A program made the translations under genes and the position numbers. Below the pieces are notes generated by a model. That model was not told where the DNA came from and made no database searches. It was given only the letters and a program-made list of their open reading frames with translations. DNA of 64,000 nucleotides, taken from positions 54,814 through 118,813 of the forward strand of contig JAUYOL010000036.1 in NCBI GenBank assembly GCA_030695905.1, written 5' to 3'. Below, piece after piece: positions 18,562 to 48,638 of the stretch (the stretch's first letter is position 1; each line of letters starts with the position of its first letter). The stretch comes from Candidatus Omnitrophota bacterium (GTDB lineage: Bacteria; Omnitrophota; Gorgyraeia; 2-01-FULL-45-10).

Positions 18562-18566
18562 AATCC

Positions 18567-26485: not shown

Positions 26486-27237
26486 CTCCTAATCTCCCTT
26501 AAACATTTTTTGGTATATTCGCCCAAAAAGAGAAAATCCACCCCAAAACCTATAAACTTAACCCCCTCCTTTACCCTCTCCTTGACCAAGACGGGCCGCG
26601 GCTCCACAACATGCTGGCCCATAAGATAACCAAACTTTTTTGATTTCCGATGGATCTCTTTAAGCGCAGACTTCACTCTGGTATCGGAAAAATCCCCAGG
26701 ACAGCCCAGCGAAGCGGAAAGGTCATACAGCCCTATGATAAAACCATCCACGCCTTCAACGCTCATGATCTCTTCAAGATTTTCAACGGCTTTAATATGC
26801 TCCACCTGTACAATAACAATGCTTTTTTTCTGGTTCCAGTCCCTGTACTTTTTAAAATCAAGGCTATAACCCTGCGCACGGGTGAGCCCTGCCCCTCTTG
26901 TGCCAATAGGGGGATATTTCACAGCATTGACACACTTTTGGGCGTCAGCCTTTGAATTAACAAGCGGCACCAAAACACCGTGGGCTCCGGCATCCATAAA
27001 TCTTTTAATAATATCATGATCATTCTGCCTGACCCGCACCAGTGGGGTTACCCCGCAAAGTTCGACCACCCTGATCAGTTCAGCAGCCTGGGCAAAAGAA
27101 AGCTGGCTATGCTCAGTGTCTACGACCAACCAGTCAAAACCTAACTTGGCCATGATCTCGGCAACCGCGCAGTCCGCGAGAGTAATCCATGTGCCTATCG
27201 TCACGGCGCCTTTGGCGAGCCTGTTCTTCAGATCCAT
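26476..27237 (-). CDS. HpcH/HpaI-family class II (metal-dependent) pyruvate aldolase
   Basis: GTWITLADCAVAEIMAKLGFDWLVVDTEHS...RV...DAGAHGVLVP pattern of HpcH/HpaI/GarL aldolases. 253 aa. Confidence 0.7.
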   Translation of the reverse strand: MDLKNRLAKGAVTIGTWITLADCAVAEIMAKLGFDWLVVDTEHSQLSFAQAAELIRVVELCGVTPLVRVRQNDHDIIKRFMDAGAHGVLVPLVNSKADAQKCVNAVKYPPIGTRGAGLTRAQGYSLDFKKYRDWNQKKSIVIVQVEHIKAVENLEEIMSVEGVDGFIIGLYDLSASLGCPGDFSDTRVKSALKEIHRKSKKFGYLMGQHVVEPRPVLVKERVKEGVKFIGFGVDFLFLGEYTKKCLREIRSCL

Positions 27238-28520: not shown

Positions 28521-29991
28521 TTGTTTTTCTCTCGTATATGCGAAGCATATGATAAATTATGTTCGTCCTTGCATTAATATATATCAGAAATGGCAGCATA
28601 GCAATACTTAAAAGGACGCTTTTTACCAGTACGCAACCATATATATTGGGCACCTTGACAAAAAATTCCAGCAAAAGAATAACTATCGAGGAATAAATAA
28701 AAGGCGTGGTTATCTCTATAAAAAATAAAACGATCTCCTTCGGTTTCATGAAATAGCGTAGAGCGTAAACCTGTAAGAGCGAGAAATAGATTAAAGATGC
28801 TATGGAAGTTGCCCAGGCCACGCCATATATACCAAAACCCTTCCTAATCAGGATGTAATTACCGATCACGCTCACAATTATACATACCAATATCACGCCA
28901 ACAATTTTTTTATAGTCCTTGATTACTATCAGAAAATGCACCGCCTGCGGCGAGCAGGAGCGGAAAAACATATCTATCAGCAATATCTGTATTGCAAGGA
29001 TCCCAGGCGTAAATTTAGGCAAAACCAGTTTTATGAAAACCGGCGCAATAAAAAATATCAGGCCAAGCAGCAATGGCAGGATGTAAGCATTTACCTTTGG
29101 CGGTATTATCGCATATTTCTTTATATCTTCCATATTCTGCCGCTTGCCATAGTCCTTAAGAATGTAAGGATAGAGCACCGTGCCGAAACTGGAAAGCTTG
29201 GCTATGTAATTTTTGGCCATTATAGAGATACTGTAATATCCAACAAAAACAACGCCTATCATCTTAGCTATCATGATCCTGTCCACACTTATCAAAATAC
29301 CGTCCAGGAATCCAATGACCGTGATCGGAAAACCTACCTTGATCAGCTCGGGCAGGCCTCTAAAATCCATGCTCAGGCTGACTTTATATTTCACAAGCAT
29401 ATGCATAAAAATTATATTCAACGCCGACACGGCCATTATCGCCATGTACAAGCCGTAAATATTGTAATTCCTGACCAATAGCATGACTAAGATCAAATTT
29501 ATCGCCGCATCAAAAATGATCGACTTGCTCAAAGCGTTAAAATTATTCCTAGCACGTAGAAGCAGCATATAATACCCGCAAAGCCGGTCCAGTATAATGT
29601 ATACTGACAGGATAAGAAGCCCTGCCACGACCTCCGCGGGATACCTATTCCGGAAAACTATCGCGCTGACCAACAACATAAGGCTGGCCGCCAAAGAGGC
29701 CAAAAATATAAGGCTGAACGCTAGATCTTTTACGCGCTCTGCTTTTGCGCGGTTGTCCCGGCCCAGATTAAAAGGTATCTCGTAACCGGCGCCTTCCGCG
29801 ACACCCATGGATATATACGATGAATAATCAGAGATAATCTTTAAAATGCTCCAGATGCCTGTGTAAAACGGCCCCAGGAAACGGCGCATTGCAATAGAAG
29901 TAAAAAATCCTATTCCCTGCGAAACATAACGGGCAAAAGTGAGTTCAAACGTCGCCTTTATTATGGATTTTTTTGTTTCGCTCATTATCAA
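28510..29991 (-). CDS. Wzx-type oligosaccharide flippase (MOP/PST superfamily)
   Basis: 493 aa, about 12-14 TM helices, N-terminal ...FARYVSQGIGFFTSIAMRRFLGPFYTGIWSI... typical of polysaccharide-biosynthesis (PST) exporters. Confidence 0.7.
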   Translation of the reverse strand: MIMSETKKSIIKATFELTFARYVSQGIGFFTSIAMRRFLGPFYTGIWSILKIISDYSSYISMGVAEGAGYEIPFNLGRDNRAKAERVKDLAFSLIFLASLAASLMLLVSAIVFRNRYPAEVVAGLLILSVYIILDRLCGYYMLLLRARNNFNALSKSIIFDAAINLILVMLLVRNYNIYGLYMAIMAVSALNIIFMHMLVKYKVSLSMDFRGLPELIKVGFPITVIGFLDGILISVDRIMIAKMIGVVFVGYYSISIMAKNYIAKLSSFGTVLYPYILKDYGKRQNMEDIKKYAIIPPKVNAYILPLLLGLIFFIAPVFIKLVLPKFTPGILAIQILLIDMFFRSCSPQAVHFLIVIKDYKKIVGVILVCIIVSVIGNYILIRKGFGIYGVAWATSIASLIYFSLLQVYALRYFMKPKEIVLFFIEITTPFIYSSIVILLLEFFVKVPNIYGCVLVKSVLLSIAMLPFLIYINARTNIIYHMLRIYERKTSAK

Positions 29992-31841
29992 TCCTTATCA
30001 AAATAGTCAATCGCACTGCGATCGGGTAAAGGTATTTCGAGCACGAAATCCCTCGCCGGCGCATCGATAAAATTAGCTATAACGCTGATCGCCTCCGGTA
30101 TTGTGTTAAATATCTTAAGAGAACTTCCAAAAAAAGATTCGATACTTTCGTCGATCTTAAATGTCTTATGCCATAGCGACATCACTGGTATCCCGGATAC
30201 TGCGGCTTCAAATAACCCGGTTGACGGGTAGTCAAATATAATCCGTTCCGGACCATGGAGACACTTCGCCAACGGCCTCGTCTTTACGGAGATATTGCTG
30301 TATTTTTTATCTTTGATATAAGAAAGCAGGGATCGATGCTGCCAGCTCTGGCCGGACGCGTACTTGTATATAAAATGCCTATCTTCTATAGCCGCAAAAT
30401 AGTCTATAATCGATTTTTGCATTTCATAATACCATGGAAGCGTATAGAAATTTACATTATATACATTAACGCCTGTAAATACTTTTGTAGGCACATACAT
30501 TATAACGTTATTCTGACACCGCCTGTTCTTATACCTACTTTTAATCGCGCCAAGATAATGTGACGATCGAGATATGTTGCATTTAGCCGGAAAACCAGGC
30601 CGAATACAGTCTTTGAAGTACCTTTCCGAAATACTATCCATCGCAAAATAGTGATCTACAAGATCCAGCTCCGTGACCCCCGCAACTTTTGTGTCATACG
30701 TTATCCCATGCTGAAAAACTACCCTTTTATTATGATCCGCAGCCGCCAAAAAAGCGCCTATCGAATCCTCTTCAGAGCTGGAACGCGCAACAACATAATC
30801 AATGTTCTCTTTTTTGTAAAAATTTTTTAATAATAATATTTCTGTCAAGTTGCGCAAACAAACATGTTCAATAAAGTGCTTAAAATACGGCGTGATAACC
30901 GAAGAAATATCCAGGCCACATTTACCACTTATCCAGCCAATCACGTCTTTTTTCATGCGTATATCACTGAACGCCTTAACGCAATCACTTGTAATATCTT
31001 TTTGTCCGTCCGTATTGCATGATAGTTTTAGCACATCTTTTTGAATAATATCACTGATGAGAACAACCCTGTTTTGATCCTTGAAAAATACCCGGTTACC
31101 GCGCGCTATACTATCCTTTATTATCATATCTATGCCCAGCCATCCGGCATGAAGTACAAATAAGCTCAGGCGCGCCCTGTCTGCCGGCTTTTGGATAAAT
31201 TTATTGATCTTACCGTATTTAAAAAAGTAATAGACGGATTTACAGCGCAGTCTTTTTAAAATTTTCTTTATTTCTTTCACCAAACAGTGCAATTGATTGG
31301 CAGGAATATTTTCCTGCGCGCCGCACTTTATAGATAGCGGCGTACCGTATTTTTCGCATACCAAAGTGACTAATTTCTTAAAAAATGTTCTTTTATTATT
31401 GCTAAGATCGTAGAAATCATCCACTGCATTATCTTTTTTCTTTAAGCAGACGTAAACGATCGAATCGGGCTTTATATTAAAAAGAACCTCCCTCAACACG
31501 CGGGCCTGTATAATAATGGAATCAATAAAATATTTTAGCTGATAAAAGTGCGCCTTTGATAAGCCTATGTTATGCTCTCTGCAATAAGTTATATTCTGTT
31601 TGAGGATCTCATCAAAATAATTGAACCATTGCAACTGGTCATTGAAATATGCATCTTCTTCTGTTTTCAAATCGTCAACACTATAATAATCTTCTATTAA
31701 CTTATACTGAATGCCCGTACGCCCTAAATCATAACAGGCTTCCGGAGTCAGGGCTATAACCATATTATTTCCATAATCCACATCTGGAAGATGGTCTTCG
31801 ACCAAATAACATTTCTTACCGCTTTTAAAATTATTTATCAC
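29988..31841 (-). CDS. Hypothetical 617-aa soluble protein (orphan; candidate nonulosonic-acid transferase/Maf-like, unverified)
   Basis: Long uninterrupted ORF in operon context, no TM segments, no motif recognised. Confidence 0.5.
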   Translation of the reverse strand: MINNFKSGKKCYLVEDHLPDVDYGNNMVIALTPEACYDLGRTGIQYKLIEDYYSVDDLKTEEDAYFNDQLQWFNYFDEILKQNITYCREHNIGLSKAHFYQLKYFIDSIIIQARVLREVLFNIKPDSIVYVCLKKKDNAVDDFYDLSNNKRTFFKKLVTLVCEKYGTPLSIKCGAQENIPANQLHCLVKEIKKILKRLRCKSVYYFFKYGKINKFIQKPADRARLSLFVLHAGWLGIDMIIKDSIARGNRVFFKDQNRVVLISDIIQKDVLKLSCNTDGQKDITSDCVKAFSDIRMKKDVIGWISGKCGLDISSVITPYFKHFIEHVCLRNLTEILLLKNFYKKENIDYVVARSSSEEDSIGAFLAAADHNKRVVFQHGITYDTKVAGVTELDLVDHYFAMDSISERYFKDCIRPGFPAKCNISRSSHYLGAIKSRYKNRRCQNNVIMYVPTKVFTGVNVYNVNFYTLPWYYEMQKSIIDYFAAIEDRHFIYKYASGQSWQHRSLLSYIKDKKYSNISVKTRPLAKCLHGPERIIFDYPSTGLFEAAVSGIPVMSLWHKTFKIDESIESFFGSSLKIFNTIPEAISVIANFIDAPARDFVLEIPLPDRSAIDYFDKD

Positions 31842-32979
31842 GATTATTATAGCCTTTGTCCCAAATATTATCTTTTACCCACTTACCGTTCTCTTTTCTC
31901 CAAACTCTGGGGTCTCTGAATGAATCCGCAACTTTCCAAAACTCATCTTCGGACATACCCACGTATTCTAACCAATAATACAGATCACTGGAGACGACAT
32001 GATCGTATTTCCTGACCATTTCAATGCCTTCATCCCTCGTCATATATCCCATGCGTATGTCTTTTGACGCATGATCTGTTGCCCGGCCATAACCAAATTT
32101 AATATATTTCATAAGGTCGTGAATCCCGTTTTCATACCTGTCATCAAGATTCGATATTTTCCTGTAGGTCCTCTCAAAAGGCGTTTGACTCGGCTTCCAA
32201 TTGTATTTCTGCTGCACCATCTTTGCGTGTTCATTAGGGTCCCATTTGAAAAAATTGCCTATATAAAGACCCCTTACACCTACGCTGAGGATCTCCTCGT
32301 CGCTAGGGTATTTCGCCCACAAAAGGTCTTTTTCGCTAAGCTTTTCGACCGGGTCGTTTAACATGTCATACCATTCAAAGCCGCGCAACCCATGTTCATG
32401 CCTAACCCTGGCGCTGAATTCGACATAATCATCGGGATCATACATTCCGGATATGTCCCAGGCGATTTCTCCCCATATTATAAGCGGTGTTTTGAATCTC
32501 ACGGCCATCTGTATCGGAACTGTAAAAATACCGCAATGTGCGTGCCAGTTCATGTCACCCATTTTTCGAAAACAAAGCCTGTTCATTTTCTTAAGCGTAT
32601 CTACGCTAGGCCCGACCACGACATGGTCCGCATCAAATACATGACGCATCCGGTCCCTGTTATAATCGCCTTCCGGAAGATAATTATTCCCATGATAAGT
32701 AACTAAAAGTGGCTTAAGCTTGTACTCGTCAACTATTATATGCGTCTGATAATAGCTGTCTTTTCCTCCGCTGACAGGAACTATGCAGTCATAATTAGAT
32801 TTATTTGAAGCTCGCGCTTCTGCTATTATCCTGTCGAACCTTTTTTTGCGCTGTTCCCAAAAATCGCCATTCATGCTCATCAGTTTTTCAAACACACGGC
32901 ATGAGCTGCATACTCCTTCTTCGTCAACGTACAGATTTACCGCAATTTGGGGATAAAGGCAGTGCTTACAGTATTTCAT
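31831..32979 (-). CDS. N-acetyl-sugar amidotransferase (PseA/WbpG family, PP-loop ATP pyrophosphatase)
   Basis: CIVPVSGGKDSYYQ PP-loop (SGGxDS). N-terminal Cys-rich region CKHCLYP...CSSC. Family is normally partnered with HisH/HisF paralogs, as seen here. Confidence 0.75.
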   Translation of the reverse strand: MKYCKHCLYPQIAVNLYVDEEGVCSSCRVFEKLMSMNGDFWEQRKKRFDRIIAEARASNKSNYDCIVPVSGGKDSYYQTHIIVDEYKLKPLLVTYHGNNYLPEGDYNRDRMRHVFDADHVVVGPSVDTLKKMNRLCFRKMGDMNWHAHCGIFTVPIQMAVRFKTPLIIWGEIAWDISGMYDPDDYVEFSARVRHEHGLRGFEWYDMLNDPVEKLSEKDLLWAKYPSDEEILSVGVRGLYIGNFFKWDPNEHAKMVQQKYNWKPSQTPFERTYRKISNLDDRYENGIHDLMKYIKFGYGRATDHASKDIRMGYMTRDEGIEMVRKYDHVVSSDLYYWLEYVGMSEDEFWKVADSFRDPRVWRKENGKWVKDNIWDKGYNNRDK

Positions 32980-33800
32980 ACGATTATCTCTTCTTTATTT
33001 TGGAAAAGTTCTGAATTCCTTACATTACAACCTTTTTCATATAGATATTTCTTCGCCAGATAAACACTCTGATCTATGTAATGAAATATATTCGCGGCAG
33101 CAACAGCATCCACCGCGGTAGTATTTAGTGCCTGCGCCAAATGTTCCCATTCGCCTACGCCTCCGCATGCTATAACAGGTATGCGCACTGCCTTGCTGAT
33201 GGCACCAATAAGATCTATGTCATATCCGCTGCGCATTCCGTCGCGATCTATCGAATTTATCAGTATTTCGCCGGCTCCGCAATCTTCGACTTTCTTCGCC
33301 CAACTGGAAGCATCGTATCCCGTAGGCGTCTTTCCGCCGCGTGACATCACCATATGACTACCGCAGGATAGCTTTGCATCGATAGACACTATTATGCATT
33401 GCGAGCCGAACTCTTTCGCAGCCTGGGTGATAAATGACGGGTCCTCCAGTGCCTTGGTATTGATCGCTATCTTATCAGCTCCACTCTTCAGCCTGATACT
33501 TATATCGTCCAACGATCGGATTTTGCCTCCAACAGTAATCGGCATGTAGCATTCTTTGGATACATCATTAAGAATATCTATTATATTTCCCCTATTAGGG
33601 TAGCGCAGGTCCTCTCTCCGGATATCGTAAATATCGTCGCTTGTTATGTCGAGATAGATCAGTTCGTCTGAAGCCCAGTCGCTCATACGCCGCACAGCGG
33701 TTATCGGATTACCAATATTTTGATAGCGGCAGAATCCTTTGCTCTGCACAAGAAAACCGTTTTTTAGCAATAAAACCGGTATCAGTCTTTTCTTCTTCAT
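32976..33800 (-). CDS. Imidazole-glycerol-phosphate-synthase cyclase subunit paralog (HisF-like) of glycan amidotransferase systems
   Basis: Collinear with HisF: RLIPVLLLKNG, YLDITS, TVGGKIRSLDD, GADKIAINT, CIIVSIDAK, GAGEILINSIDRDGMRSGYDIDL, IPVIACGGVG. Confidence 0.85.
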   Translation of the reverse strand: MKKKRLIPVLLLKNGFLVQSKGFCRYQNIGNPITAVRRMSDWASDELIYLDITSDDIYDIRREDLRYPNRGNIIDILNDVSKECYMPITVGGKIRSLDDISIRLKSGADKIAINTKALEDPSFITQAAKEFGSQCIIVSIDAKLSCGSHMVMSRGGKTPTGYDASSWAKKVEDCGAGEILINSIDRDGMRSGYDIDLIGAISKAVRIPVIACGGVGEWEHLAQALNTTAVDAVAAANIFHYIDQSVYLAKKYLYEKGCNVRNSELFQNKEEIIV

Positions 33801-34438
33801 TTTAGGCTCATAAAATTCTTAAGAAGCATTATACCGGCTTTCTGACTTTTTTCCGGGTGAAATTGTACTCCATATATATTATCCCTATTAACTATGGCTG
33901 CAAATTCTTCCCCGTAATTTGACGATGCCATCATCTCTTCCGAGTTTAGCGGCTCAAGATGATAGCTATGAACATAGTAAAAATCAGTATTATCACTCAT
34001 GCCTTCCAGTAAAGGACTTTTTCTTACAACCCTGATATTATTCCACCCCACATGCGGCAATGATAAGTTCGGGGCATTTATTCTCTTCACGGCACCGGGG
34101 ATCCATCCCAGCCCATCGCAGGAACCGTGCTCGTGCCCGACATCGGCCAATACTTGCATACCGACACATATGCCCAGAAACATCTTCTTCTTATTCAAAA
34201 CACTGTATTCTAGCAGCTCAAATGTCGGCATTTTTTTTATCTTATCAATAGCTGCTTTAAATGCGCCTACGCCCGGCAACACCAGATGAGTAGCCTTTTC
34301 CATGTCTTTGGCATCATTAGATACCATTACTGAATCGTGAAAACTTTTAAATGCATTATAGACTGAATTTACATTTCCAAATCCATAGTCTATTATACAT
34401 ACGTTAGATTTTCCTGAGGTCATATCAAAACATCCCAC
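33797..34438 (-). CDS. Glutamine amidotransferase subunit paralog (HisH-like, class I GATase)
   Basis: VCIIDYGFGNVNSV, LVLPGVGAF, GICVGMQVL (catalytic Cys), HVGWN, VQFHPEKS. Confidence 0.85.
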   Translation of the reverse strand: MGCFDMTSGKSNVCIIDYGFGNVNSVYNAFKSFHDSVMVSNDAKDMEKATHLVLPGVGAFKAAIDKIKKMPTFELLEYSVLNKKKMFLGICVGMQVLADVGHEHGSCDGLGWIPGAVKRINAPNLSLPHVGWNNIRVVRKSPLLEGMSDNTDFYYVHSYHLEPLNSEEMMASSNYGEEFAAIVNRDNIYGVQFHPEKSQKAGIMLLKNFMSLK

Positions 34439-35487
34439 GTTAATGGGGTGCCCTTTCTGATGTTCCGCGCGGCATTTTTCCCTAAGACTTTCTTGTAATA
34501 CTTAGGTGCAATTCCATATGCCGGCCTGATAGATTTCACATTATCCTGAGTAAGCTTTGACCCTTTAACAATGTCACGAACAGCAAAAATAGATCGCCTG
34601 AAGATACGGTTATCCCTTTCGCCTTTAGTAAGCCCGTAGTGGACTTTTCCCAGTGCCTTTTCTGCGGTTCGTATACAGGAAACGAGCGCGGCAAATTCAT
34701 GCGGCTCTACGGAGAAAAAACTATCCGGCGTCTTCAATCTGCGTGACAAGATAAAATGCTTTTCCACCATAATGGCGCCAAGGCTGACAGCGGCAACGGC
34801 AACGCTGGTCCCGCAAGTATGATCCGACAGCCCAATCGGAAGATCGAACCTTTTTGCCATATCGGGTATCGTCCTTATATTCATCTCTTCCGGAACTGCC
34901 GGATATCCGCTAACACATTTCATCAGAGTGATATCTTTTGCTCCGGCTTTTTTTGCGGCAGATACCGCATCTTTTATCTCAAGAATGGTCGCCATGCCCG
35001 TTGACAATATGATCGGTTTTTTAGTCTTAGCCGCATATTCTATCAACGGCAGGTCTATTAATTCAAATGATGATATTTTGTGGCAGCTCACTCCTATCTC
35101 TTCCAGAAAATCCACCGAAGTCCTGTCAAACGCGGAAGCAAAAAATACCAGACCCAATCCGTCCGCTACTCTTTTTAACCTCTTAAACCAGTTCCATGGA
35201 GTATAAGACTGCCGATACAATTCGTAAAGCGTCTGGTTGCCCCAGCTAGGGTGCTTGATCCTGAAATATTTGCTATTCGCGTCTATCGTTATAATATCCG
35301 GATTGTAAGCCTGAAATTTTACCGCGTCTGCGCCACATCGTTTTGCGGCCCTTATCATCTCTACAGCGCGCGCAAATTTTTGGCCATGATTTGCCGAGAT
35401 TTCGGCTATTATAAAAACACGGTCTTTTCTACCAGCCATCTGGGCACCTTGCCTTATAAATAATGCCTTTATCATTATGTCCGGCAT
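34420..35487 (-). CDS. pseI: Nonulosonic acid synthase (NeuB/PseI/LegI family) with C-terminal SAF domain
   Basis: IIAEISANHGQKFARAVEMIRAAKRCGADAVKFQ NeuB-family TIM-barrel signature. C-terminal SAF region (...VRDIVKGSKLTQDNVKSIRP...). Neighbouring PseB/C/F suggest the pseudaminic acid branch. Confidence 0.8.
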   Translation of the reverse strand: MPDIMIKALFIRQGAQMAGRKDRVFIIAEISANHGQKFARAVEMIRAAKRCGADAVKFQAYNPDIITIDANSKYFRIKHPSWGNQTLYELYRQSYTPWNWFKRLKRVADGLGLVFFASAFDRTSVDFLEEIGVSCHKISSFELIDLPLIEYAAKTKKPIILSTGMATILEIKDAVSAAKKAGAKDITLMKCVSGYPAVPEEMNIRTIPDMAKRFDLPIGLSDHTCGTSVAVAAVSLGAIMVEKHFILSRRLKTPDSFFSVEPHEFAALVSCIRTAEKALGKVHYGLTKGERDNRIFRRSIFAVRDIVKGSKLTQDNVKSIRPAYGIAPKYYKKVLGKNAARNIRKGTPLTWDVLI

Positions 35488-36661
35488 ATTTGTATCCTGC
35501 CTTTAAAAATACCTTGCGCGATACCTGATTTTCTTTTTTGATCTCGGCAAATATCGGCTTGGAGCTCCCAAATTCAGAAAAAGCTTTTTTCGTCCCGAGC
35601 TTCACCATACCTGTACCAAAGCCTCTGTTAAAAAAAACCGGATTCGTATTAACGCTCACTATTACTGATCTTCCCCTTACCTCGAACCTTATGACGCCCG
35701 CCTTGTCCTGCCCCTGCTGGCATATATATATTCTGGAATTATTATCCTGCATCTTACAGTCAAACCATTTCTTATGCGTACACCATGGTACGGGCTTATC
35801 ATTAAAACTGTTCTTTCTGATTTCGGGCCTGTTCCTCCATTTCCACAGGTCCTTGCAGTCGTCCCGGGTCGCAGTCCTTAAAATAAAACTCTTCTCTTTC
35901 CCAGTCAATGCTTTGAAAAAGTCTATATCTTCTTTAAAATCAGTCAAGTCTTTTGCAGGGTCCTTCGGGGTCTCCAGCGTACAGAGTTTGATGCTGCTTC
36001 CGTTTTTTTTGATCGTCTCCATTATAGCGCCTAGATCGCACTCGCTCCGATTTAAGCAAAGGTGGTCATTGGCCCCCGAATTGTAACTTATCCCCGCGAT
36101 ATGCATTATCTCCGGCTTTAACCTTAAAAAATCATTGATGACTTTAATACGTTCTTTGTGCGAACTATACGCGTAACCAACTGCGTGATTTACGTCAAAA
36201 CAGAATCCAACATTTGCTGTTTTTTTATAACGTTCTATCTCCCGCGGTGAACTGCCCACGCAGATAGTGTTCTTAAGCCCGTGCACCGGTTTATTCTCTA
36301 TCAATATCCGTTCATCGCCAAGAATCGCGAGCTGCTCCTCGGCTTCGGGTCGCTGTCCTAATACGCCACAGTGCACGACTATGTACCTGGCATTCAACTC
36401 ATCCGCGAAACATTGTGCTTCTTTAAAAAGGCGCCTATTGCGCCCCCTCTTGTCTTTGTCAGCCAGGTTGAATCCGTGTGCATAATGAGGTGCGTGTACT
36501 ATATAGGGAACATCTAAACTTTTCCATAATTTGATATAACGTGAGATAGTGCGCGGGACCGCGTAAAGTTCTATGAAATCGTAATTCCCGCCGCTATACA
36601 TCCTTGCGGCGGATTTGATATAGCAACTGTTGTCAGACCATAGCTTTAGCCCTATCTTCAC
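35429..36661 (-). CDS. Fusion: xylose-isomerase-like TIM-barrel (sugar-phosphate isomerase/epimerase fold) + C-terminal GNAT N-acetyltransferase (PseH-like)
   Basis: N-terminal roughly 250 aa has YIVVHCG...ENKP...FCFDVNHA pattern of AP-endonuclease-2/xylose-isomerase-like barrels. C-terminal roughly 150 aa (...VIRFEVRGRSVIVSVNTNPVFFNRGFGTGMV...) is a GNAT acetyl-CoA-binding core. Confidence 0.55.
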   Translation of the reverse strand: MKIGLKLWSDNSCYIKSAARMYSGGNYDFIELYAVPRTISRYIKLWKSLDVPYIVHAPHYAHGFNLADKDKRGRNRRLFKEAQCFADELNARYIVVHCGVLGQRPEAEEQLAILGDERILIENKPVHGLKNTICVGSSPREIERYKKTANVGFCFDVNHAVGYAYSSHKERIKVINDFLRLKPEIMHIAGISYNSGANDHLCLNRSECDLGAIMETIKKNGSSIKLCTLETPKDPAKDLTDFKEDIDFFKALTGKEKSFILRTATRDDCKDLWKWRNRPEIRKNSFNDKPVPWCTHKKWFDCKMQDNNSRIYICQQGQDKAGVIRFEVRGRSVIVSVNTNPVFFNRGFGTGMVKLGTKKAFSEFGSSKPIFAEIKKENQVSRKVFLKAGYKYAGHNDKGIIYKARCPDGW

Positions 36662-37386
36662 GACCGCCCTCGCTCGCTTATCTTCAATGCATCGATAAAT
36701 TTAATTACCCGTTCTAATCTTTTTTTATCTGCACTGATACCGGAAAATTTGTTGAATATCTTATATAGTGCACAATAGTCATCCATGGTATCCAGCGTTA
36801 CGCGTATGTCAGGCCTCCTGAGCTTCGGGATGGGCTCAAGATAACACACATTAAAAATTTCAGTGTTTTTATAAATATAGGTCGTAACATGCTCTCTATC
36901 ATGCGCCCGTCTTGCGGCCCTTGAAACCGCAATAAGCGTATCTCTACGAACCACCTCAACGCCGGACCCGTAAGGTATATTTTTCATTGTCACTAGGTCG
37001 CATCTCGTACTGGTGATTTTGTTAACACATAGATCTATAAAAGATGTTTCCGTCAAAGGATTATCAGCCGTTACGCGCACAATAACATCCGATCCAAGCC
37101 TTAAAGCTGCCTTCGCATATCTATCCAGCACATCTTCTTCGCTTCCTTTAAAGGAGATTACTTTATTTTTACTGGCCTCGGCCGAAATGATTTCGCCCGC
37201 TTCTCCGGTCGACGTAGCTACACATACAGAATCGACCGTCTTCGCGCGCTTGGCGGCATTTATGGCCCTCGCGAGAACTGTCTTGCCGCAAAGATCCATC
37301 ATGGCCTTGCCCGGAAGTCTCGTCGAACCCAAGCGCGCCTGTATAATAACCGACACTTTTTGTCTGCCGCTTACCATGCCGTCCAA
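36658..37386 (-). CDS. pseF: CMP-nonulosonic-acid synthetase (PseF/NeuA/SpsF cytidylyltransferase family)
   Basis: VSVIIQARLGSTRLPGKAMMDLCGKTVL N-terminal signature of SpsF/PseF cytidylyltransferases. 242 aa. Confidence 0.75.
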   Translation of the reverse strand: MDGMVSGRQKVSVIIQARLGSTRLPGKAMMDLCGKTVLARAINAAKRAKTVDSVCVATSTGEAGEIISAEASKNKVISFKGSEEDVLDRYAKAALRLGSDVIVRVTADNPLTETSFIDLCVNKITSTRCDLVTMKNIPYGSGVEVVRRDTLIAVSRAARRAHDREHVTTYIYKNTEIFNVCYLEPIPKLRRPDIRVTLDTMDDYCALYKIFNKFSGISADKKRLERVIKFIDALKISERGRS

Positions 37387-38180
37387 CCCCCGTCAACTAC
37401 GATATTGGAGCCCGTAACATAACTTGATGCGTCTGATGCCAAAAAAAGCAAGGCCCCCTTCAGATCTTCAGGGTTACCTATCCTTCCCAGCGGAATTTTG
37501 TTTTTAAGATTTGACATGAATCCCTTATTTTTTTGGATATCCCTGCTCGGAAATGCGCCCGGAGTTATTGAATTGACCCTTATATGCTTAGACGCAAGGT
37601 GACAAGCCGCATATCGTGTGAATTGTAGGATTGCTGCCTTTCCTGCCCCATATGCGGGAGGATTATTTAATTCGGATTTTCCGTATATACCCGAATACGG
37701 CGAAACAATGCCGTAAATAGAAGAAATATTGATTATCGAACCGCTGCCTCGCTTCTGCATATATGGTATAACGGCTTGGGTACATCTAAAAACTCCGCCT
37801 GCCGTTCCGTCAATGCCGCAGTTCCACATATCTTCCGACATAGACATCATGTCACATTTAAAACTGCCCCTGTGCCCAAAATATGCGTTATTTACTAATA
37901 TATCTACCCCACCCATCTTTCTGCTGATTAGCGACATTGTTTCTTTTACGCTTTCAGCGGATGATATATCGATCTCTATGCCTAAGGATATGGTTTTATA
38001 CTTCCTCATTAGTGTTGTCGCCGCCGATCCGCATTTTTTAATATCCCTTCCGGCCACTACAACGCGTGCGCCTGCCTGTGCAAGGCAATCGGACATCGAT
38101 GACCCGAGATGACCCGCACCTCCTGTAACTACCGCAACTTTATTCTTAAGCCCGAAAATGCTATTCTTTTTCATAGCCAC
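37371..38180 (-). CDS. Short-chain dehydrogenase/reductase
   Basis: KVAVVTGGAGHLGSSMS (TGxxxxxG); NNAY; YGAGK (YxxxK). Confidence 0.75.
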   Translation of the reverse strand: MAMKKNSIFGLKNKVAVVTGGAGHLGSSMSDCLAQAGARVVVAGRDIKKCGSAATTLMRKYKTISLGIEIDISSAESVKETMSLISRKMGGVDILVNNAYFGHRGSFKCDMMSMSEDMWNCGIDGTAGGVFRCTQAVIPYMQKRGSGSIINISSIYGIVSPYSGIYGKSELNNPPAYGAGKAAILQFTRYAACHLASKHIRVNSITPGAFPSRDIQKNKGFMSNLKNKIPLGRIGNPEDLKGALLFLASDASSYVTGSNIVVDGGWTAW

Positions 38181-39123
38181 CCTTTTTAGTTTTACTAAAC
38201 CAAAGAGACGGAATCTTCAGTCTCAAAGGAATGTCCGAAAAATACCGAAACAATCTTTTTTTTACGTCTTTGCCTATCCGTGCCTTTCTAAAAATATTTA
38301 TATCTTCCAGTATCTGATCGCTTGACTCCGCTCCTATAATAACGCTGGATATCTCCGGAATACTTTTTAGGAAACCAAGCGCGAGATCATGAATACCGAC
38401 GCCCTCACCACGCAAGAACTCGCGCAGCCTCTTTAAATATTTTGCGTAGAATTCCATTCCGCGCGGCATCCGGTCCGGGTCCAGAAAAAACAATCCCTGC
38501 AAAAATACGCTTCGCGCAAAAAGTATCTTTCCGCTTTTCTTGATACGTGCCAAAAGGCGCGGCTCGATAAATCTATGGTCAAAAAGATTTATAGGCACCT
38601 GTATTGCCCCTATTTCATCCATCGACAAAGCAGCTTCGACTTCATGGGCGTAATAGCAGGAGGCGCCTATCATACCTATTAGCCCATCTTTTTTTATCCT
38701 CGATAAGGCCTCAATAATTTTTTTCCCGTTTGATCCTATATCCGATGCGTCATGTAATAGATAAGCGTTAATCTTATCCTTTTTTAAGCGTTTTAACGAT
38801 CCCAGGACACTTTTCCTGATATTCTCATATATCAGATCACGGCCGGCGTATTTTAATTTCCCGACACCGGGAAGCTTAGAGATTATAAAAGGCTTGCACT
38901 TATTACTGCCTATAAAACGCCCTAAGATATCTTCGCTCTTACCATAAGCGCTTGCGGTATCAAAGCTATGTATGCCGTTATCGAAAGAAACTTCGAGTAT
39001 CCTGTAGGCTTCTTTTTCTCCTGGGCATCCCGTTCGGTTTGCAATTCCATAATGCGACCCGAGCTGGGTAGTCCCCAGAGTCAGTGCCGTGATATCTTCT
39101 TCTATTGCACGCTTCTTGAACAT
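38161..39123 (-). CDS. Aldo/keto reductase family oxidoreductase
   Basis: LGTTQLGSHYG...FDTASAYGKSEDILG...IGASCYY core AKR motifs. 320 aa. Confidence 0.75.
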   Translation of the reverse strand: MFKKRAIEEDITALTLGTTQLGSHYGIANRTGCPGEKEAYRILEVSFDNGIHSFDTASAYGKSEDILGRFIGSNKCKPFIISKLPGVGKLKYAGRDLIYENIRKSVLGSLKRLKKDKINAYLLHDASDIGSNGKKIIEALSRIKKDGLIGMIGASCYYAHEVEAALSMDEIGAIQVPINLFDHRFIEPRLLARIKKSGKILFARSVFLQGLFFLDPDRMPRGMEFYAKYLKRLREFLRGEGVGIHDLALGFLKSIPEISSVIIGAESSDQILEDINIFRKARIGKDVKKRLFRYFSDIPLRLKIPSLWFSKTKKGGYEKE

Positions 39124-40268
39124 AGAACACCTATGACCGTTTTTGCGACGTACAGGACTTCTTTATCCGACATTCCCGGATGAAGTGGAAGCGAGATGGT
39201 ATTGTTATAAAATCTCTGAGCGTTACAAAATTCCGACGTCTTGTATCCTTTAGACCTATAGTATGGATGGCTTGTCACGGGTATATAATGAACCTGAGCG
39301 CCTATGCCTTTATCATGCAACCTCTGATACAGCCCTCTCCTGGATATACGGCACCTTTTTTCATTTAACCTCAATACATAAAGGTGCCATGCGTGCGTCC
39401 TGTCCGGAAAATCTACGGCCGGCAATTTTACAAGGTCTCCCAGATTTTCATTAAATGCCTTGTCGTACATGCTTGCTATTGCGCTGCGACGCACAAGGAA
39501 TTCCGGAAGCTTATTCATCTGGCTATATCCTAACGCGGCCTGTAGTTCTGTCATCCTGTAATTAAATCCGATATCAAGCATTTCATAATACCAGCCGCCA
39601 TTTTTTCTAAGAGCCTCTTTTCTCTTATAGATACCATGGCTGCGCAAAGCAAGCATTTTTTCATAAAATCTTTTCGAGTTAGTCGTAACCATACCGCCTT
39701 CTCCGGTTGTTACGTGCTTAACCGGATGAAAACTAAAAATACTCATATCGGAATATCTACATGACCCCGTGCGGGACTCGTTATATTCGGAACCCAGAGC
39801 ATGGCAGGAATCTTCTATTACAATTAGGCCATGCCTTCTTGCAATATTATATATTTCGAACATATCGCACGGAAGGCCCGCAAAATTTACCGACAATATG
39901 GCTTTTGTGGTGGCAGTGATCTTCTCTTTTATTTTGCCGGCGCTTATATTCATGGTTTCATAATCGATATCAACGAATACTGGCCTGGCGCCTGTATACA
40001 ACACCGCATTCGACGTGGCCACGAACGTAATCGGTGAAGTTATAGCCTCGTCTCCTTTTTTTAGACCCGCCGCCAGACATGCCAGGTGAAGTGCCGCGGT
40101 GCCGCTTGAGACTGCAAGAGCGTATTTCACACGGCAGTATTCCGCAACTCGCTTCTCAAATTTTTGCACCATAGGACCCTGCGTGATAAGATCCGACTTC
40201 AGAGCCTTGATTACCTCCCGTATGTCATTATTATCTATATTCTGCTTTCCGTAGGGTATAAAACGCAT
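39102..40268 (-). CDS. pseC: PLP-dependent sugar aminotransferase, DegT/DnrJ/EryC1 family (PseC-like UDP-4-keto-6-deoxy-HexNAc aminotransferase)
   Basis: FIPYGKQNIDNNDIREVIKALKSDLITQGP N-terminus characteristic of PseC. PLP-Lys motif SIFSFHPVKHVTTGEGG. LRSHG. Confidence 0.8.
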   Translation of the reverse strand: MRFIPYGKQNIDNNDIREVIKALKSDLITQGPMVQKFEKRVAEYCRVKYALAVSSGTAALHLACLAAGLKKGDEAITSPITFVATSNAVLYTGARPVFVDIDYETMNISAGKIKEKITATTKAILSVNFAGLPCDMFEIYNIARRHGLIVIEDSCHALGSEYNESRTGSCRYSDMSIFSFHPVKHVTTGEGGMVTTNSKRFYEKMLALRSHGIYKRKEALRKNGGWYYEMLDIGFNYRMTELQAALGYSQMNKLPEFLVRRSAIASMYDKAFNENLGDLVKLPAVDFPDRTHAWHLYVLRLNEKRCRISRRGLYQRLHDKGIGAQVHYIPVTSHPYYRSKGYKTSEFCNAQRFYNNTISLPLHPGMSDKEVLYVAKTVIGVLCSRSVQ

Positions 40269-40270
40269 CT

Positions 40271-41275
40271 TTATACGACTTCCTTATTGATCATTTTTCT
40301 CATATCCTCTATCGAATACCAGTCTTTATTAGTATCGCTGCTGTAACCATCGAATCCGAAACCCAGTGCACGACCGCTGTCTTTTCCGTTTTTACGCACA
40401 ATTATATACGGATATGTCACGAACTTGTCTTTATACTCATAAGTGTAAATACCGTCATCCTTAGGCACTAATATCTCATGCAGCTTTTCGCCCGGTCGTA
40501 TACCTATTGTTTTTTGCCTGCAGCCGGGGCAAACCGATCTGGCAAGGTCGGTTATTTTAATGCTACGCATCTTAGGAATAAATATCTCTCCACCTTTCAT
40601 CTCTTTTATACTGCTTATAACAAAATTAACACCCTCTTCGAGCGTTATGAAGAACCTGGTCATCCTTGGGTCCGTAATCGGAACTACGCCACTTTTTCTG
40701 CATTCCTTAAAAAACGGCACGGCGCTTCCCCTTGATCCGAGAACGTTGCCGTACCGCACCACGCTGAAAAACGGTTTACCCGTACGGTAGTTATTTGCTG
40801 CTATAAACATCTTTTCTGCACACAATTTTGTAGCTCCATATAGATTGACTGGGTTTGCCGCTTTATCGGTACTAAGCGCGATCACTTTTTTTACGCCGTT
40901 ATCTATCGCTATATTGATAACGTTTTCTGCGCCCATAATATTCGTTTTGACAGCCTCGAAAGGATTAAATTCTGCGTATGGTACGATCTTTAAAGCCGCA
41001 GCATGTACGACTATATCCACGTTATAAAAAGCCCTGTGTAACCTGTCAGGGTCACGCACATCTCCCAGGAAATATCTTATATTCGGATATTTTTCCTGAC
41101 TGTATATCTTGCTCATTTCGAACTGCTTCATCTCATCCCGGCTGAATATTATCAGCTTACACGGCTTGTGGTATTTCAGCACTATTTCGGTGAATTTCTG
41201 ACCGAACGAACCGGTGCCTCCCGTGATTAGAACAATCTTATCTTTAAAAATATCCGCATTCTTCATTTTACGCAT
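40271..41275 (-). CDS. pseB: UDP-N-acetylglucosamine 4,6-dehydratase (PseB/FlaA1/CapD family)
   Basis: KIVLITGGTGSFG; IIFSRDEMKQFEM; ALSTDKAANPVNLYGATK (catalytic Tyr/Lys of the Polysacc_synt_2 family). Confidence 0.8.
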   Translation of the reverse strand: MRKMKNADIFKDKIVLITGGTGSFGQKFTEIVLKYHKPCKLIIFSRDEMKQFEMSKIYSQEKYPNIRYFLGDVRDPDRLHRAFYNVDIVVHAAALKIVPYAEFNPFEAVKTNIMGAENVINIAIDNGVKKVIALSTDKAANPVNLYGATKLCAEKMFIAANNYRTGKPFFSVVRYGNVLGSRGSAVPFFKECRKSGVVPITDPRMTRFFITLEEGVNFVISSIKEMKGGEIFIPKMRSIKITDLARSVCPGCRQKTIGIRPGEKLHEILVPKDDGIYTYEYKDKFVTYPYIIVRKNGKDSGRALGFGFDGYSSDTNKDWYSIEDMRKMINKEVV

Positions 41276-41657: not shown

Positions 41658-42389
41658 TCAGCTGTATTTGCGAGATAAGGCGGTTAGCTTTATTATCAGT
41701 ATGCTTATGAAGGATTTTATTGCATCCTTTACTGGCTTTACTTTAGACTCGCTCTTGTGGATCCATCTAACGGGTACCTCTTTTATCTTAAGGCCGTATT
41801 TATTTAACAAAAACAGCAGCTCAACATCAAAGCTCCAGTCATTCATTTTTTGTAACTCGAATATACGGTAGGTGGTTCTTGTGTTATAAACCTTAAATCC
41901 GCAATTAAAATCGCTTAAGTTTAATCCAAGTATGAGCCGCGCCAGAAAAATATAAAATTGGCCCATCTTTGCCCTAAAAAAAGGCTGCGGCTCTTCCACA
42001 TTGGAAGTTTTAAGCCTTCTCGATGCTATGACGGCATCATATCCCTCTTTAAGATAAGGCAGGAATTTGTCAAATTCATAAATAGATGTAGAATTGTCGG
42101 CATCCATGAATAGCGCGTACTCTCCTTTAGCGAAAAGAATCCCCCTCTTTACTGAATACCCCTTACCTTTATTGGCGTCGTTCTTAAGGACTTTGAAATC
42201 GCTGAAAAGATTCGAGCAAGTTTGAGTATTTTCAAAAGTCTTGTCCTTGGATCCGTCGTCTATGACAATTATTTCATATGAAAATTTTTTTTTATTTAAA
42301 TAACCCGATATCTCTTCAAGCGTCGTCCGGATATTTTTCTCTTCATTGTATGCAGGTATGACGACTGTTAAAAGAATGTCCTGGTTCAC
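41658..42389 (-). CDS. GT2 polyprenyl-phosphate glycosyltransferase (DPM1/ArnC/CsbB-like)
   Basis: ILLTVVIPAYNEEKNI...IIVIDDGSKDKT...DADNS. Start set to GTG preceded by AAAGGAGG (6-nt spacer); the longer ATG ORF would overlap the upstream gene by 134 nt, while this start still overlaps by about 47 nt. Confidence 0.75.
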   Translation of the reverse strand: MNQDILLTVVIPAYNEEKNIRTTLEEISGYLNKKKFSYEIIVIDDGSKDKTFENTQTCSNLFSDFKVLKNDANKGKGYSVKRGILFAKGEYALFMDADNSTSIYEFDKFLPYLKEGYDAVIASRRLKTSNVEEPQPFFRAKMGQFYIFLARLILGLNLSDFNCGFKVYNTRTTYRIFELQKMNDWSFDVELLFLLNKYGLKIKEVPVRWIHKSESKVKPVKDAIKSFISILIIKLTALSRKYS

Positions 42390-44064
42390 TTTGCGCCTCC
42401 TTTTTTGTAAAATCATAGATAAATATGGAATGACCGGCTGTTGCGGTCGGTTTATGTTCCTTCGCCCACTTAGCATGCTCTAAATATTGGGCGCTTATCG
42501 CATATATATTATTTCCCGGTACCTCAAATTCGTCGGGCGTAAACTTTCGATAATGAACGCCATAAACAGCCGGGTCTGCCTGGCCGAAATATTCTAACAC
42601 TACCTCTTTTACACTATTTTTTTCCATATACCGTGATAGCGACGGCAGGTCCTGTCCCCAATCAACATTTGAATCTCTAATATATTTATATCCGTTTGCC
42701 GGGCCTCCAACAGCTTCATTAAAGTAGCCCAGATAATGCGGCCATGCCGTGAAGGCCGAAAAGGCGTACCAGACAATCAATAGCGCCATGGCAATAACCG
42801 CGGCTTTATTCTTCAGGAACTCCACGCTTCTGCCCGCTATCATAAAACAGAAAGGATATACCGGCAATATGTGCCGCAACCCCAGCTTCAATCCGCTTAG
42901 AGACGATACTGCCAGGAATATGACAGTAAAGATAAGGATAAACCTTTCGCCCATGCCGAGCCTGCGCCTTAATAATGCCATAAGGCCGGCCAATAATAGT
43001 ATTATTGCCGCGATGGGCGTCTTTATCAGGAACGCCGTGACAAAATATAGCGGGCTTCCGTGGGCCGACCATCTTCCCAGGAAAAAAGTATTGTGGCCCT
43101 CCTGGCCGTGGCGCAGGACCCCTATTATACCGAGCATGTGTGACGGCAATGGCACCGGAACTTTCAGTAAAATATCGTCCAGTCTGCGAATGGCCTCGGG
43201 TCCCGCGGCCGGGAATATCTTCTTGGCGATACTGTGCGCGATCTGGAGCTTTTCGTCTACTCGCATCGCATCCTTCAATAATGGCTGAAACTCAAAGCCG
43301 TACCCGGCCCAAATAACTATTAAAGACAATAGAACTATAATAAAGAAGTTTAAAAGAGCGAGATTGCTTCGTCGTTTCGCTCCTCGCAATGACAGTTTTT
43401 CAGCAATCCCGAATAATTCAAGAAGTGGAATTAATAGAAATACCGGATAGAGCAGGATGGCCGTATACTTGGACAATTGCGCCAGGCCAAGGGCAAGGCC
43501 CGCCAATACAGCGTTCTTCATGGAGGGCTCTTTCAAAAATAGCCAGAATGTATAACACGATAGCAGGATAAAGAAAGCGGCTATCATATCCGTAGTGGCA
43601 AGACCGGAATGCGCCAGCATCTCAGGAGATGAGGAGTAGAGGAACAGGCTCAATAAAGCCGCCTTCTCACCCCAAAGCGCCTTTGCCCACACGAACAATA
43701 ATAGGCCGCATAATACACCCACAAGCACCACTGGCAGCCTGGCGGCCCATACGATCGCGACCTGTCCTGCATTGTACTTATAGAAAAAATCCCTGCCGAA
43801 AACAGAACGATCCGCCGCTCGCCATACAGCCTTGTCGTCAGGCATGTCTATATTCATGAATAACTTCAGGGGCAATGCCACTATGTATCGCGGCAGCGGC
43901 GGCTGCGATGTATCCATCTTGAAATCGGCCTTTGTCAATAAAACATACCCCACGGGTATATGATGGGCGATCTCATCGCATGTTGCGGAATTCTGCCGCA
44001 TACTTGATATAGTTAAAACAGCAAATACCAAAAGTAGAATTATTACAGGTATTTTTGTCTTCAT
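42343..44064 (-). CDS. GT-C membrane glycosyltransferase (ArnT/PMT_2, GT83/GT39-like)
   Basis: 573 aa, N-terminal TM bundle with CDEIAHH periplasmic-loop acidic motif (DE of GT-C), more than 10 TM helices, C-terminal soluble domain. Confidence 0.6.
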   Translation of the reverse strand: MKTKIPVIILLLVFAVLTISSMRQNSATCDEIAHHIPVGYVLLTKADFKMDTSQPPLPRYIVALPLKLFMNIDMPDDKAVWRAADRSVFGRDFFYKYNAGQVAIVWAARLPVVLVGVLCGLLLFVWAKALWGEKAALLSLFLYSSSPEMLAHSGLATTDMIAAFFILLSCYTFWLFLKEPSMKNAVLAGLALGLAQLSKYTAILLYPVFLLIPLLELFGIAEKLSLRGAKRRSNLALLNFFIIVLLSLIVIWAGYGFEFQPLLKDAMRVDEKLQIAHSIAKKIFPAAGPEAIRRLDDILLKVPVPLPSHMLGIIGVLRHGQEGHNTFFLGRWSAHGSPLYFVTAFLIKTPIAAIILLLAGLMALLRRRLGMGERFILIFTVIFLAVSSLSGLKLGLRHILPVYPFCFMIAGRSVEFLKNKAAVIAMALLIVWYAFSAFTAWPHYLGYFNEAVGGPANGYKYIRDSNVDWGQDLPSLSRYMEKNSVKEVVLEYFGQADPAVYGVHYRKFTPDEFEVPGNNIYAISAQYLEHAKWAKEHKPTATAGHSIFIYDFTKKEAQSEPGHSFNSRHTCIQ

Positions 44065-48636: not shown

Positions 48637-48638
48637 TC

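Follow-up and report, generated by a model that had tools for sequence, protein, structure and literature searches.

An endonuclease IV-like TIM barrel in the pseG position of a pseudaminic acid-type operon from a Candidatus Omnitrophota bacterium

How does a pseudaminic acid operon that has no recognisable pseG gene release uridine diphosphate (UDP) from its sugar intermediate? The question is raised by a 64-kb stretch of DNA (the window) from a metagenome-assembled genome of a Candidatus Omnitrophota bacterium, all of which is a minus-strand glycan-biosynthesis island, and in which positions 31831–41275 are occupied by a block of genes for a pathway of the pseudaminic acid (Pse) type. Pse, a bacterial sugar resembling sialic acid, is found on flagella, capsules and O-antigens and is a target of both vaccine and antivirulence-drug development. 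Our analysis indicates that UDP release in this operon is most likely the work of a TIM barrel related to endonuclease IV (Endo IV), which is fused to a GNAT acetyltransferase domain in a protein of 410 amino acids (aa) and which would be a non-homologous UDP-sugar hydrolase replacing PseG. We favour this reading because the barrel lies in the pseG slot, its relatives are never found with PseG, the two are naturally swapped in otherwise similar operons, and the barrel family conserves the metal ligands of Endo IV. The pathway and the step are known ones; the enzyme family for UDP release is probably new.

The operon and its missing pseG

All ten open reading frames (ORFs) of the Pse block were verified at the coordinates below. 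Nine of the gene junctions are overlaps of 4–59 nucleotides (nt) and one has a 2-nt gap, and the ten genes therefore form one operon in the order PseB-PseC-AKR-SDR-cytidylyltransferase-[TIM+GNAT]-PseI-HisH-HisF/WbuZ-WbuX (AKR, aldo/keto reductase; SDR, short-chain dehydrogenase/reductase). Scores are against Pfam (PF) and NCBIfam (TIGR) models; UDP-GlcNAc is UDP-N-acetylglucosamine and CMP is cytidine monophosphate.

40271–41275, minus strand: PseB, inverting UDP-GlcNAc 4,6-dehydratase, 334 aa (TIGR03589, 461.6 bits, cut-off 407.75)
39102–40268, minus strand: PseC aminotransferase, 388 aa (TIGR03588, 491.4 bits, cut-off 423.5)
38161–39123, minus strand: aldo/keto reductase, 320 aa (PF00248, 116 bits)
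37371–38180, minus strand: SDR oxidoreductase, 269 aa, candidate EpaB-like partner (PF13561, 176 bits)
36658–37386, minus strand: FlmC/SpsF-type cytidylyltransferase, 242 aa, predicted CMP-nonulosonate synthetase (CTP_transf_3, PF02348, 113 bits)
35894–36661, minus strand: Endo IV-like TIM-barrel domain, residues 1–256 of the 410-aa protein, proposed PseG replacement (PF01261)
35429–35893, minus strand: GNAT (PseH-like) N-acetyltransferase domain, residues 257–410 of the same protein (PF13302 at 260–391)
34420–35487, minus strand: PseI pseudaminic acid synthase, 355 aa (TIGR03586, 449.2 bits, cut-off 340.25)
33797–34438, minus strand: HisH-like glutaminase subunit, WbuY-type (TIGR01855, 238.9 bits, cut-off 105.4)
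32976–33800, minus strand: HisF-like cyclase-fold subunit, WbuZ-type (TIGR03572, 260.8 bits, below the cut-off of 299.7)
31831–32979, minus strand: WbuX/PseA-family N-acetyl sugar amidotransferase, 382 aa (TIGR03573, 318.7 bits, cut-off 203.2)

A first-pass annotation, made from the sequence alone, had described a pathway of Pse or legionaminic acid (Leg) type on the strength of short motifs, all of which are present in the proteins named: LITGGTGSFG, STDKA and YGATK at residues 16, 135 and 146 of PseB; IPYGKQNID, LITQGP and FSFHPVKHVTTGEGG at residues 4, 27 and 178 of PseC; and IIQARLGSTRLPGK at residue 14 of the cytidylyltransferase. The hidden Markov models (HMMs) that it had suggested for PseB, PseC and WbpG/WbuX (TIGR03589, TIGR03588 and TIGR03573) are all matched above their cut-offs. 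PseB and PseI both pass equivalog cut-offs, and the competing NCBIfam models score lower: FnlA 222.8 and LegB 66.2 bits for PseB, a LegC-family model 242.6 bits for PseC, and NeuB_NnaB 307.5 bits for PseI, under that model's cut-off of 399.65 (the PseI protein has the Pfam domains NeuB, PF03102, and SAF, PF08666). Since the LegB score is low and NeuB_NnaB lies below its cut-off, the pathway is of Pse type, and re-assignment to Leg or neuraminic acid synthesis is rejected on these scores. Like the canonical PseB-PseC-PseH-PseG-PseI-PseF pathway of Campylobacter and Helicobacter (psaA-F in Acinetobacter), the window has equivalog-grade PseB, PseC and PseI proteins and a GNAT domain at the PseH step, and it shares that pathway's operon order and logic. 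It differs in that an Endo IV-like TIM barrel occupies the slot of the GT-B-fold PseG, and in that the PseF-family enzyme is replaced by a cytidylyltransferase of the FlmC/SpsF type. We think it probable that the operon makes a CMP-activated Pse derivative by known chemistry with these two modules swapped.

The lack of a recognisable PseG, which the first-pass annotation had remarked on, holds for the whole window. Its six frames contain no match to four PGAP-annotated PseG seeds (the pseG genes of plasmid loci L009, L010, L091 and L092), used singly and as an HMM, nor to the validated Caulobacter PseG, FlmD (sequence from the supplement of PMC7591256). There is no GT28-type protein among the 50 of the 54 large (≥120 aa) minus-strand ORFs that were scanned with Pfam, whose glycosyltransferases belong only to the GT2, GT4, GT87 and PMT_2/YfhO types. 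These PseG probes recover PseG in 32 of the 42 control loci described below.

The TIM-barrel family and the pseG slot

Pfam finds AP_endonuc_2 at residues 38–251 of the 410-aa protein (55.2 bits, cut-off 31.1) followed by GNAT, in agreement with the earlier description of a GNAT domain fused behind a TIM barrel. The fusion had been taken as a peculiarity of this locus; it proves instead to belong to a widespread family. The protein is 100% identical to a Candidatus Omnitrophota protein at NCBI that is annotated merely as "GNAT family N-acetyltransferase", and most of its relatives stand alone, with a length of about 255 aa. When 1.84 billion representatives were searched exhaustively with a profile, 421 clusters matched at E≤1e-30, and about one third of the top representatives have the length of a TIM+GNAT fusion; such fusions occur in the window and in loci L013, L049 and L159, and protein P0020 is a cytidylyltransferase+TIM fusion. 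A TIM-domain profile scan of one genome per species found relatives in at least 258 genomes, in lineages that include Akkermansia and other Verrucomicrobiota, Mucispirillum, Gastranaerophilales, Geobacteraceae and other Desulfobacterota, Elusimicrobiota, Dependentiae, Planctomycetota, Omnitrophota, Brevinematales, Synergistia, Bacteroidota, Alpha- and Gammaproteobacteria, Margulisbacteria and Riflebacteria. No TIM relatives were found on plasmids, though relatives of PseI are present on 165 of them. The TIM domain lacks an NCBIfam model and Pfam gives only the generic AP_endonuc_2, and full-text literature searches that linked pseudaminic or nonulosonic acid with such barrels returned no description of the family. 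The family is compact, has no name and was apparently not described before.

Several variations on the arrangement of these genes were seen. Nine TIM-type clusters (L029, L035, L042, L043, L065, L070, L077, L081 and L086) have GNAT attached to the C-terminal end of PseI (about 485 aa in all) and not to the hydrolase, a third fusion arrangement of the same pathway. Two Gastranaerophilales loci have two TIM paralogues per Pse cluster, which are adjacent in L031 and separated by pseF in L014.

The genomic position of the family was examined in 80 TIM-centred genome loci, in which every ORF was classified with window-derived and PGAP-derived seeds. A NeuB-family synthase is present within 10 kb in 50 of them, and PseB, PseC and PseI are all present in 35, of which 31 also have a cytidylyltransferase and 24 a GNAT protein. 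These partners are of Pse type in the great majority of cases by NCBIfam: at E≤1e-100, 40 of 49 synthases match PseI and 37 of 38 dehydratases match PseB. The modal order, PseB-PseC-PseF-TIM-GNAT-PseI, is the canonical pseBCFGHI order of Klebsiella and Parabacteroides plasmids with TIM in the pseG slot, and in L019, L032, L048 (Akkermansia) and L052 the cluster consists of these six genes and nothing more. PseG was found in none of the 80 loci (seeds, HMM and FlmD). As a control we used 80 metagenome loci centred on PseI, with counts taken from those of at least 9 kb (n=42); PseG alone occurs in 32 of these, TIM alone in three, neither in seven, and both in none. PseG is therefore present in 0 of 50 synthase-bearing TIM loci and in 32 of 39 TIM-free control loci (Fisher p=1e-17), and the FlmD probe by itself detects 40 PseG ORFs among the control loci but not one among the TIM loci.

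Two operons provide what amounts to a natural swap. Metagenome locus L172 reads PseB-PseC-AKR-SDR-SpsF-[PseG+GNAT]-PseI, and L095 of Herbaspirillum sp. meg3 reads PseB-PseC-[SpsF+AKR]-SDR-[PseG(1–296)+GNAT]-PseI, so that, apart from the SpsF+AKR fusion of L095, the content of this stretch in the window differs from theirs solely in the N-terminal domain of the bifunctional protein. Proteins annotated by PGAP as bifunctional PseG/GNAT (Parabacteroides L010, Herbaspirillum L095) have the same layout as the window fusion, with an N-terminal UDP-removal domain and a C-terminal GNAT, and their genes likewise come immediately before pseI. The GNAT halves share homology, those of the bifunctional proteins being the closest to the window's GNAT (E 7e-16 and 4e-14), which itself scores 57 bits on the PseH model TIGR03585 (cut-off 93.1) and has SpeG and MJ1062 as Foldseek neighbours. 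The N-terminal halves, on the other hand, are a GT-B domain in the one case and a TIM barrel in the other, with no detectable sequence relationship. More generally, the TIM fusions with GNAT and with cytidylyltransferase mirror known PseG fusions. The TIM gene is also found outside Pse clusters, after pyrG-glmS in Mucispirillum (L034/L061, 6495–10774) and between flhA and flhF in Succinivibrio faecicola (L055, 7088–12549); the products of pyrG and glmS serve the supply of cytidine triphosphate and UDP-GlcNAc.

An AlphaFold2 model of the 410-aa protein has two domains (predicted local distance difference test score, pLDDT, 93.8; predicted template modelling score, pTM, 0.81). Foldseek relates the barrel to MJ1311, TTHB071, MbnB and Endo IV from five organisms, its top match being a "D-tagatose 3-epimerase-like" protein, and the family profile run against PDB sequences matches MJ1311 (4.5e-11) and Endo IV proteins (3.8e-9 to 1e-5) far better than MbnB (0.02) or a sugar isomerase (0.06). 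With hhalign the family aligns to E. coli Endo IV (Nfo) with a probability of 94% and with the ligands in register: the nine ligands of the trinuclear zinc site in the Nfo crystal structure (H69, H109, E145, D179, H182, H216, D229, H231 and E261) correspond to family positions H59, H97, E122, D156, H159, H187, D198, H200 and E230, all of them fully or almost fully conserved across 42 members of the family. W46, H56, N65, N75, N123, K124 and C134 are further invariant residues of the family. Sugar epimerases of this superfamily keep just a Glu-Asp-His-Glu subset of the ligands. The TIM family thus shares the fold of Nfo, MJ1311 and TTHB071 and conserves the nine ligand positions of Nfo, from which we infer that the barrel is a metal-dependent phosphoesterase. 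It differs from Endo IV in being only about 18–21% identical to it and in its context, which is sugar biosynthesis or flagella rather than DNA repair; the Pse-operon and flagellar settings argue against a DNA-repair role, and we do not class the family as Endo IV.

The steps around the barrel can be proposed as follows. PseB and PseC, by family assignment, convert UDP-GlcNAc to UDP-4-amino-4,6-dideoxy-beta-L-AltNAc; the GNAT domain of the 410-aa protein would acetylate N4 (the PseH step), and the TIM barrel of the same protein would then strip off UDP (the PseG step). Because PseI needs a free aldose, the simplest reaction for the barrel is attack on the beta-phosphorus with departure of the anomeric oxygen: a metal-activated water would cleave the P–O rather than the C–O bond and yield UDP and free 6-deoxy-AltdiNAc, much as Endo IV expels the 3'-oxygen of a sugar. 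PseI (again by family assignment) condenses the freed sugar with phosphoenolpyruvate. The locus is best read as the first-pass annotation suggested, with a non-canonical enzyme handling UDP release, and among the three candidates that it named (the barrel and two orphan proteins) the comparative evidence favours the barrel. We lean, by no great amount, towards the broader view that the family is a new class of Endo IV-like trinuclear-metal nucleotide-sugar hydrolase, which attacks phosphorus and has displaced PseG in at least 15 phylum-level lineages, with Akkermansia, Mucispirillum, Gastranaerophilales, Geobacteraceae, Omnitrophota and Dependentiae among the groups concerned.

Several observations count against these conclusions. 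MbnB, a multi-iron oxidase and a Foldseek neighbour, shares the ligand pattern, so that the ligand set alone cannot prove hydrolysis over MbnB-like redox chemistry. The window's own copy departs from the family consensus in codons 194–204 of the TIM+GNAT gene (36050–36082): it has Asn at position 198 (codon AAT), the equivalent of Nfo D229, where all 41 other aligned members have Asp, and Cys at position 202, where 34 of 42 have His. The copy keeps eight of the nine ligands, and its closest relatives (65% and 60% identity) carry the consensus residues; N198 may stem from an error in the assembly, may be a ligand change that the enzyme tolerates, or may lower activity, and the copy could be impaired. 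The absence of PseG was established for 64 kb of a 252-kb contig and a distant pseG may conceivably exist elsewhere in the genome, and the seven of 42 PseI-centred loci that have neither PseG nor TIM make neighbourhood absence less than absolute proof. A conserved protein of 300–360 aa, which we call X, accompanies TIM in eight of the 80 TIM-centred loci (L001 9099–10001, L006 7279–8211, and also L013, L021, L035, L039, L045 and L071), often beside WbuX, and is present in none of the 80 PseI-centred loci. It has no Pfam, NCBIfam or PDB match. The idea that X is a divergent PseG was rejected, as its hhalign probability against a PseG profile is 0.5% and it is absent from the window.

If the barrel is not the hydrolase, a PseG or housekeeping hydrolase whose gene lies elsewhere could remove UDP, while the barrel carries out an isomerase or epimerase step or an MbnB-like oxidation that leads to a modified Pse. 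The Pfam family is, after all, named for a "xylose isomerase-like TIM barrel", the top Foldseek match is epimerase-like with MbnB oxidases also among the neighbours, the search for PseG was confined to the window, and some PseI-centred loci lack both genes. An accessory enzyme should, however, sometimes meet PseG, and none of the 80 and 42 loci has both; moreover the barrel occupies the exact pseG position with the same fusion partners, its family keeps all nine Endo IV ligands and not simply the epimerase set, and its profile prefers Endo IV to sugar isomerase and MbnB. We therefore consider this unlikely. A further possibility is that the barrel acts on the UDP-sugar as a pyrophosphatase, which would split it to UMP (uridine monophosphate) and sugar-1-phosphate and leave a separate phosphatase to finish the PseG step. 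Metal-dependent pyrophosphatases of nucleotide sugars are common (LpxH is an example), and in L004 a Metallophos phosphoesterase is encoded two genes downstream of the cytidylyltransferase+TIM fusion; but the six-gene clusters L019, L032, L048 and L052 hold no extra class of gene within the module, and the window's Pse block revealed no phosphatase, which makes this a distinctly improbable alternative.

The two orphan proteins that had been put forward as PseG substitutes lie downstream of the operon. One is encoded at 27240–28520 (426 aa), and the other, which adjoins the operon directly, is the following:

29988–31841, minus strand: 617-aa protein, possible nonulosonate transferase, operon membership uncertain (overlaps wbuX by 11 nt)

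The overlap with wbuX, and a weak match of the 426-aa protein to the GT-B-type Glyphos_transf family (E 1.8e-4), could be taken to point to a missing PseG here. Set against a 16-member PseG profile, though, the two proteins have hhalign probabilities of 0.7% and 0.4%; the 160 other Pse loci hold no relative of the 426-aa protein and a single weak relative of the 617-aa protein (adjoining Pse genes in L122), and the latter protein weakly resembles the LIC12162-family transferases (TIGR04331, E 1.7e-5). Both fit better as glycan-specific transferases, and we give the orphans hardly any chance of being PseG. The TIM barrel thus remains the preferred candidate for the hydrolase.

Prediction tools that require pseG will call TIM-type clusters incomplete and will therefore miss Pse production in many uncultured lineages and in gut bacteria, for example non-muciniphila Akkermansia, Mucispirillum and Melainabacteria. 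If the barrel is indeed the hydrolase, it would be a second, mechanistically unrelated UDP-release enzyme and so a clean case of non-homologous replacement, it would extend the Endo IV scaffold from DNA to nucleotide sugars, and it could offer an alternative catalyst for chemoenzymatic Pse synthesis.

The cytidylyltransferase, the oxidoreductases and the predicted product

The cytidylyltransferase had been called PseF-type in the first-pass annotation, but it is of the FlmC/SpsF type instead. On the PseF model TIGR03584 (cut-off 205.7) it scores 33.4 bits and aligns over residues 14–66 only, while true PseF proteins in L001 and L006 score 287–305 bits. It is 30% identical to Caulobacter FlmC over 201 residues (BLASTP, E 1.4e-27), and is also related to an Azospirillum gene beside pseI (E 1e-32) and to the N-terminal half of the Herbaspirillum fusion protein P0349 (29% identity, E 1e-23). 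In the study of Caulobacter crescentus FlmC (PMC7591256), the authors remark that the enzyme lacks homology to PseF, although it does complete a Pse pathway of six genes that was reconstituted in E. coli. The window enzyme is likewise only remotely related to PseF, but FlmC works beside a normal PseG (FlmD), whereas the partner of the window enzyme is the TIM barrel. Of 85 loci, which comprise the 80 TIM-centred genome loci together with four from metagenomes and the window itself, 40 have only a PseF-type and 11 only an SpsF-type enzyme, and one has both, so the two are near-exclusive alternatives.

The AKR and SDR genes do lie, as had been noted, between pseC and the cytidylyltransferase gene, though the latter is not pseF. 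The genes for AKR, SDR and SpsF are found together as a unit in L004, L011, L012 and L172 as well as in the window, and in Pse loci L095 and L173 a CTP_transf_3+AKR fusion of about 547 aa is followed by an SDR. The window AKR is 32% identical to residues 241–549 of P0349 (E 9e-44), and the window SDR matches the SDR that follows the fusion in L095 (E 2e-62). For query P0203, one such fusion, over 1600 relatives score E≤1e-10; nearly all of the best 120 listed are CTP_transf_3+AKR fusions, and EpaA is not among these 120. EpaA (SBS22546.1; CTP_transf_3+Aldo_ket_red, 542 aa) and the SDR EpaB (SBS22545.1), from A. baumannii prophages, convert Pse5Ac7Ac to 8-epi-Pse5Ac7Ac, as was shown by nuclear magnetic resonance (PMC12053666), and in a parallel system for 8-epi-legionaminic acid ElaABC acts on the CMP-sugar by way of an 8-keto intermediate (PMC13656337). 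The window trio has in common with EpaA/EpaB the domain set CTP_transf_3, Aldo_ket_red and SDR and the association with Pse genes; it differs in that CTP_transf_3 and AKR are encoded separately, both within the Pse operon, and in that PseF is absent. By analogy, the cytidylyltransferase, SDR and AKR of the window might together bring about CMP activation and oxidation and re-reduction at C8, to give the 8-epimer. An earlier suggestion of a "reduced or epimeric Pse derivative" is accordingly plausible in its second half, and nothing supports a reduced product.

The link to the epimerase is made through domain architecture and through about 30% identity to uncharacterised fusions, not through the EpaA and EpaB sequences themselves, and the AKR occurs without the SDR in six clusters (L047, L071, L078, L081, L083 and L086), where it stands beside a PseF-type cytidylyltransferase. 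Both facts tell against epimerisation, and on account of them we put an 8-epimeric product at a little less than an even chance. The AKR and SDR might instead serve another purpose (for example an N-acyl donor or a second sugar) and leave Pse with its ordinary stereochemistry. The AKR-without-SDR clusters fit such a role, as does the fact that the solved structures matched by the SDR are generic FabG-like enzymes; the recurrence of the trio as a unit with the exact make-up of EpaA/EpaB, and the fusion followed by an SDR in L095 and L173, speak for epimerisation. We regard this alternative as quite possible, if not one to be preferred. Should the trio prove EpaA/EpaB-like in function, 8-epi-Pse, so far reported from Acinetobacter only, may be widespread.

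Related genes are found in PseG-type clusters as well. An AKR related to that of the window (E 2.6e-25) follows pseC in L091 (Pseudosulfitobacter plasmid pSMR1-1, 1616–2470), a cluster that contains PseG and near which no recognisable cytidylyltransferase is annotated; the AKR is thus an accessory gene that recurs with Pse genes whichever type of hydrolase they include. In the PseG-type metagenome clusters L126, L146 and L168, proteins of about 1030–1043 aa with an SpsF-type domain are encoded between pseC and pseG.

At the distal end of the operon, the presence of WbuX, HisH-like and HisF-like proteins led the first-pass annotation to predict an acetamidino derivative. The same trio lies inside at least eight other Pse loci (L012, L017, L121, L123, L129, L151, L173 and L174), a recurrence which supports amidination of a Pse derivative. 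The window resembles PseA/WbuX-WbuY-WbuZ systems in having a WbuX above its cut-off with adjacent HisH and HisF paralogues (the HisF-like protein scores 243.6 bits on the hisF model, likewise below the cut-off). It differs from C. jejuni PseA, which is not known to act with adjacent HisH/HisF paralogues. WbuX with HisH/HisF would convert one acetamido group to acetamidino; that the position is N7 is suggested only by the precedent of the C. jejuni sugar Pse5Ac7Am. The predicted product is then a sugar of the CMP-(8-epi)Pse5Ac7Am type, destined for the surrounding glycan island.

Other features of the glycan island

Directly downstream of the Pse block, a second sugar-acid module extends over 13909–27237 (minus strand). 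It encodes an HpcH/HpaI-type aldolase, a KdsB-subfamily cytidylyltransferase (270 bits, cut-off 255), a KduD-like SDR, a glycyl radical enzyme (glycerol-dehydratase/HypD-like) with its activase, two B12-radical-SAM enzymes, a Gfo/Idh/MocA protein, two methyltransferases, a SIS protein, a 2-hydroxyacid dehydrogenase and an inositol-monophosphatase-like protein. Within a glycan cluster such a glycyl radical enzyme is unusual, and the gene content suggests that a pyruvate aldolase builds a 2-keto-3-deoxy acid which is activated with CMP and is either radically deoxygenated or C-methylated.

Elsewhere in the window, an RtcB RNA-ligase homologue (6976–8568; PF01139, 287 bits) lies mid-island beside a thymidylate-kinase-like gene. 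The regions 1207–5445, 42343–50012 and 56055–57818 hold an ArnA-like formyltransferase+polysaccharide-deacetylase fusion and seven PMT_2/YfhO/GT87 membrane glycosyltransferases. Together with a total of four B12-radical-SAM enzymes, they form a set that is unusually dense for one island.

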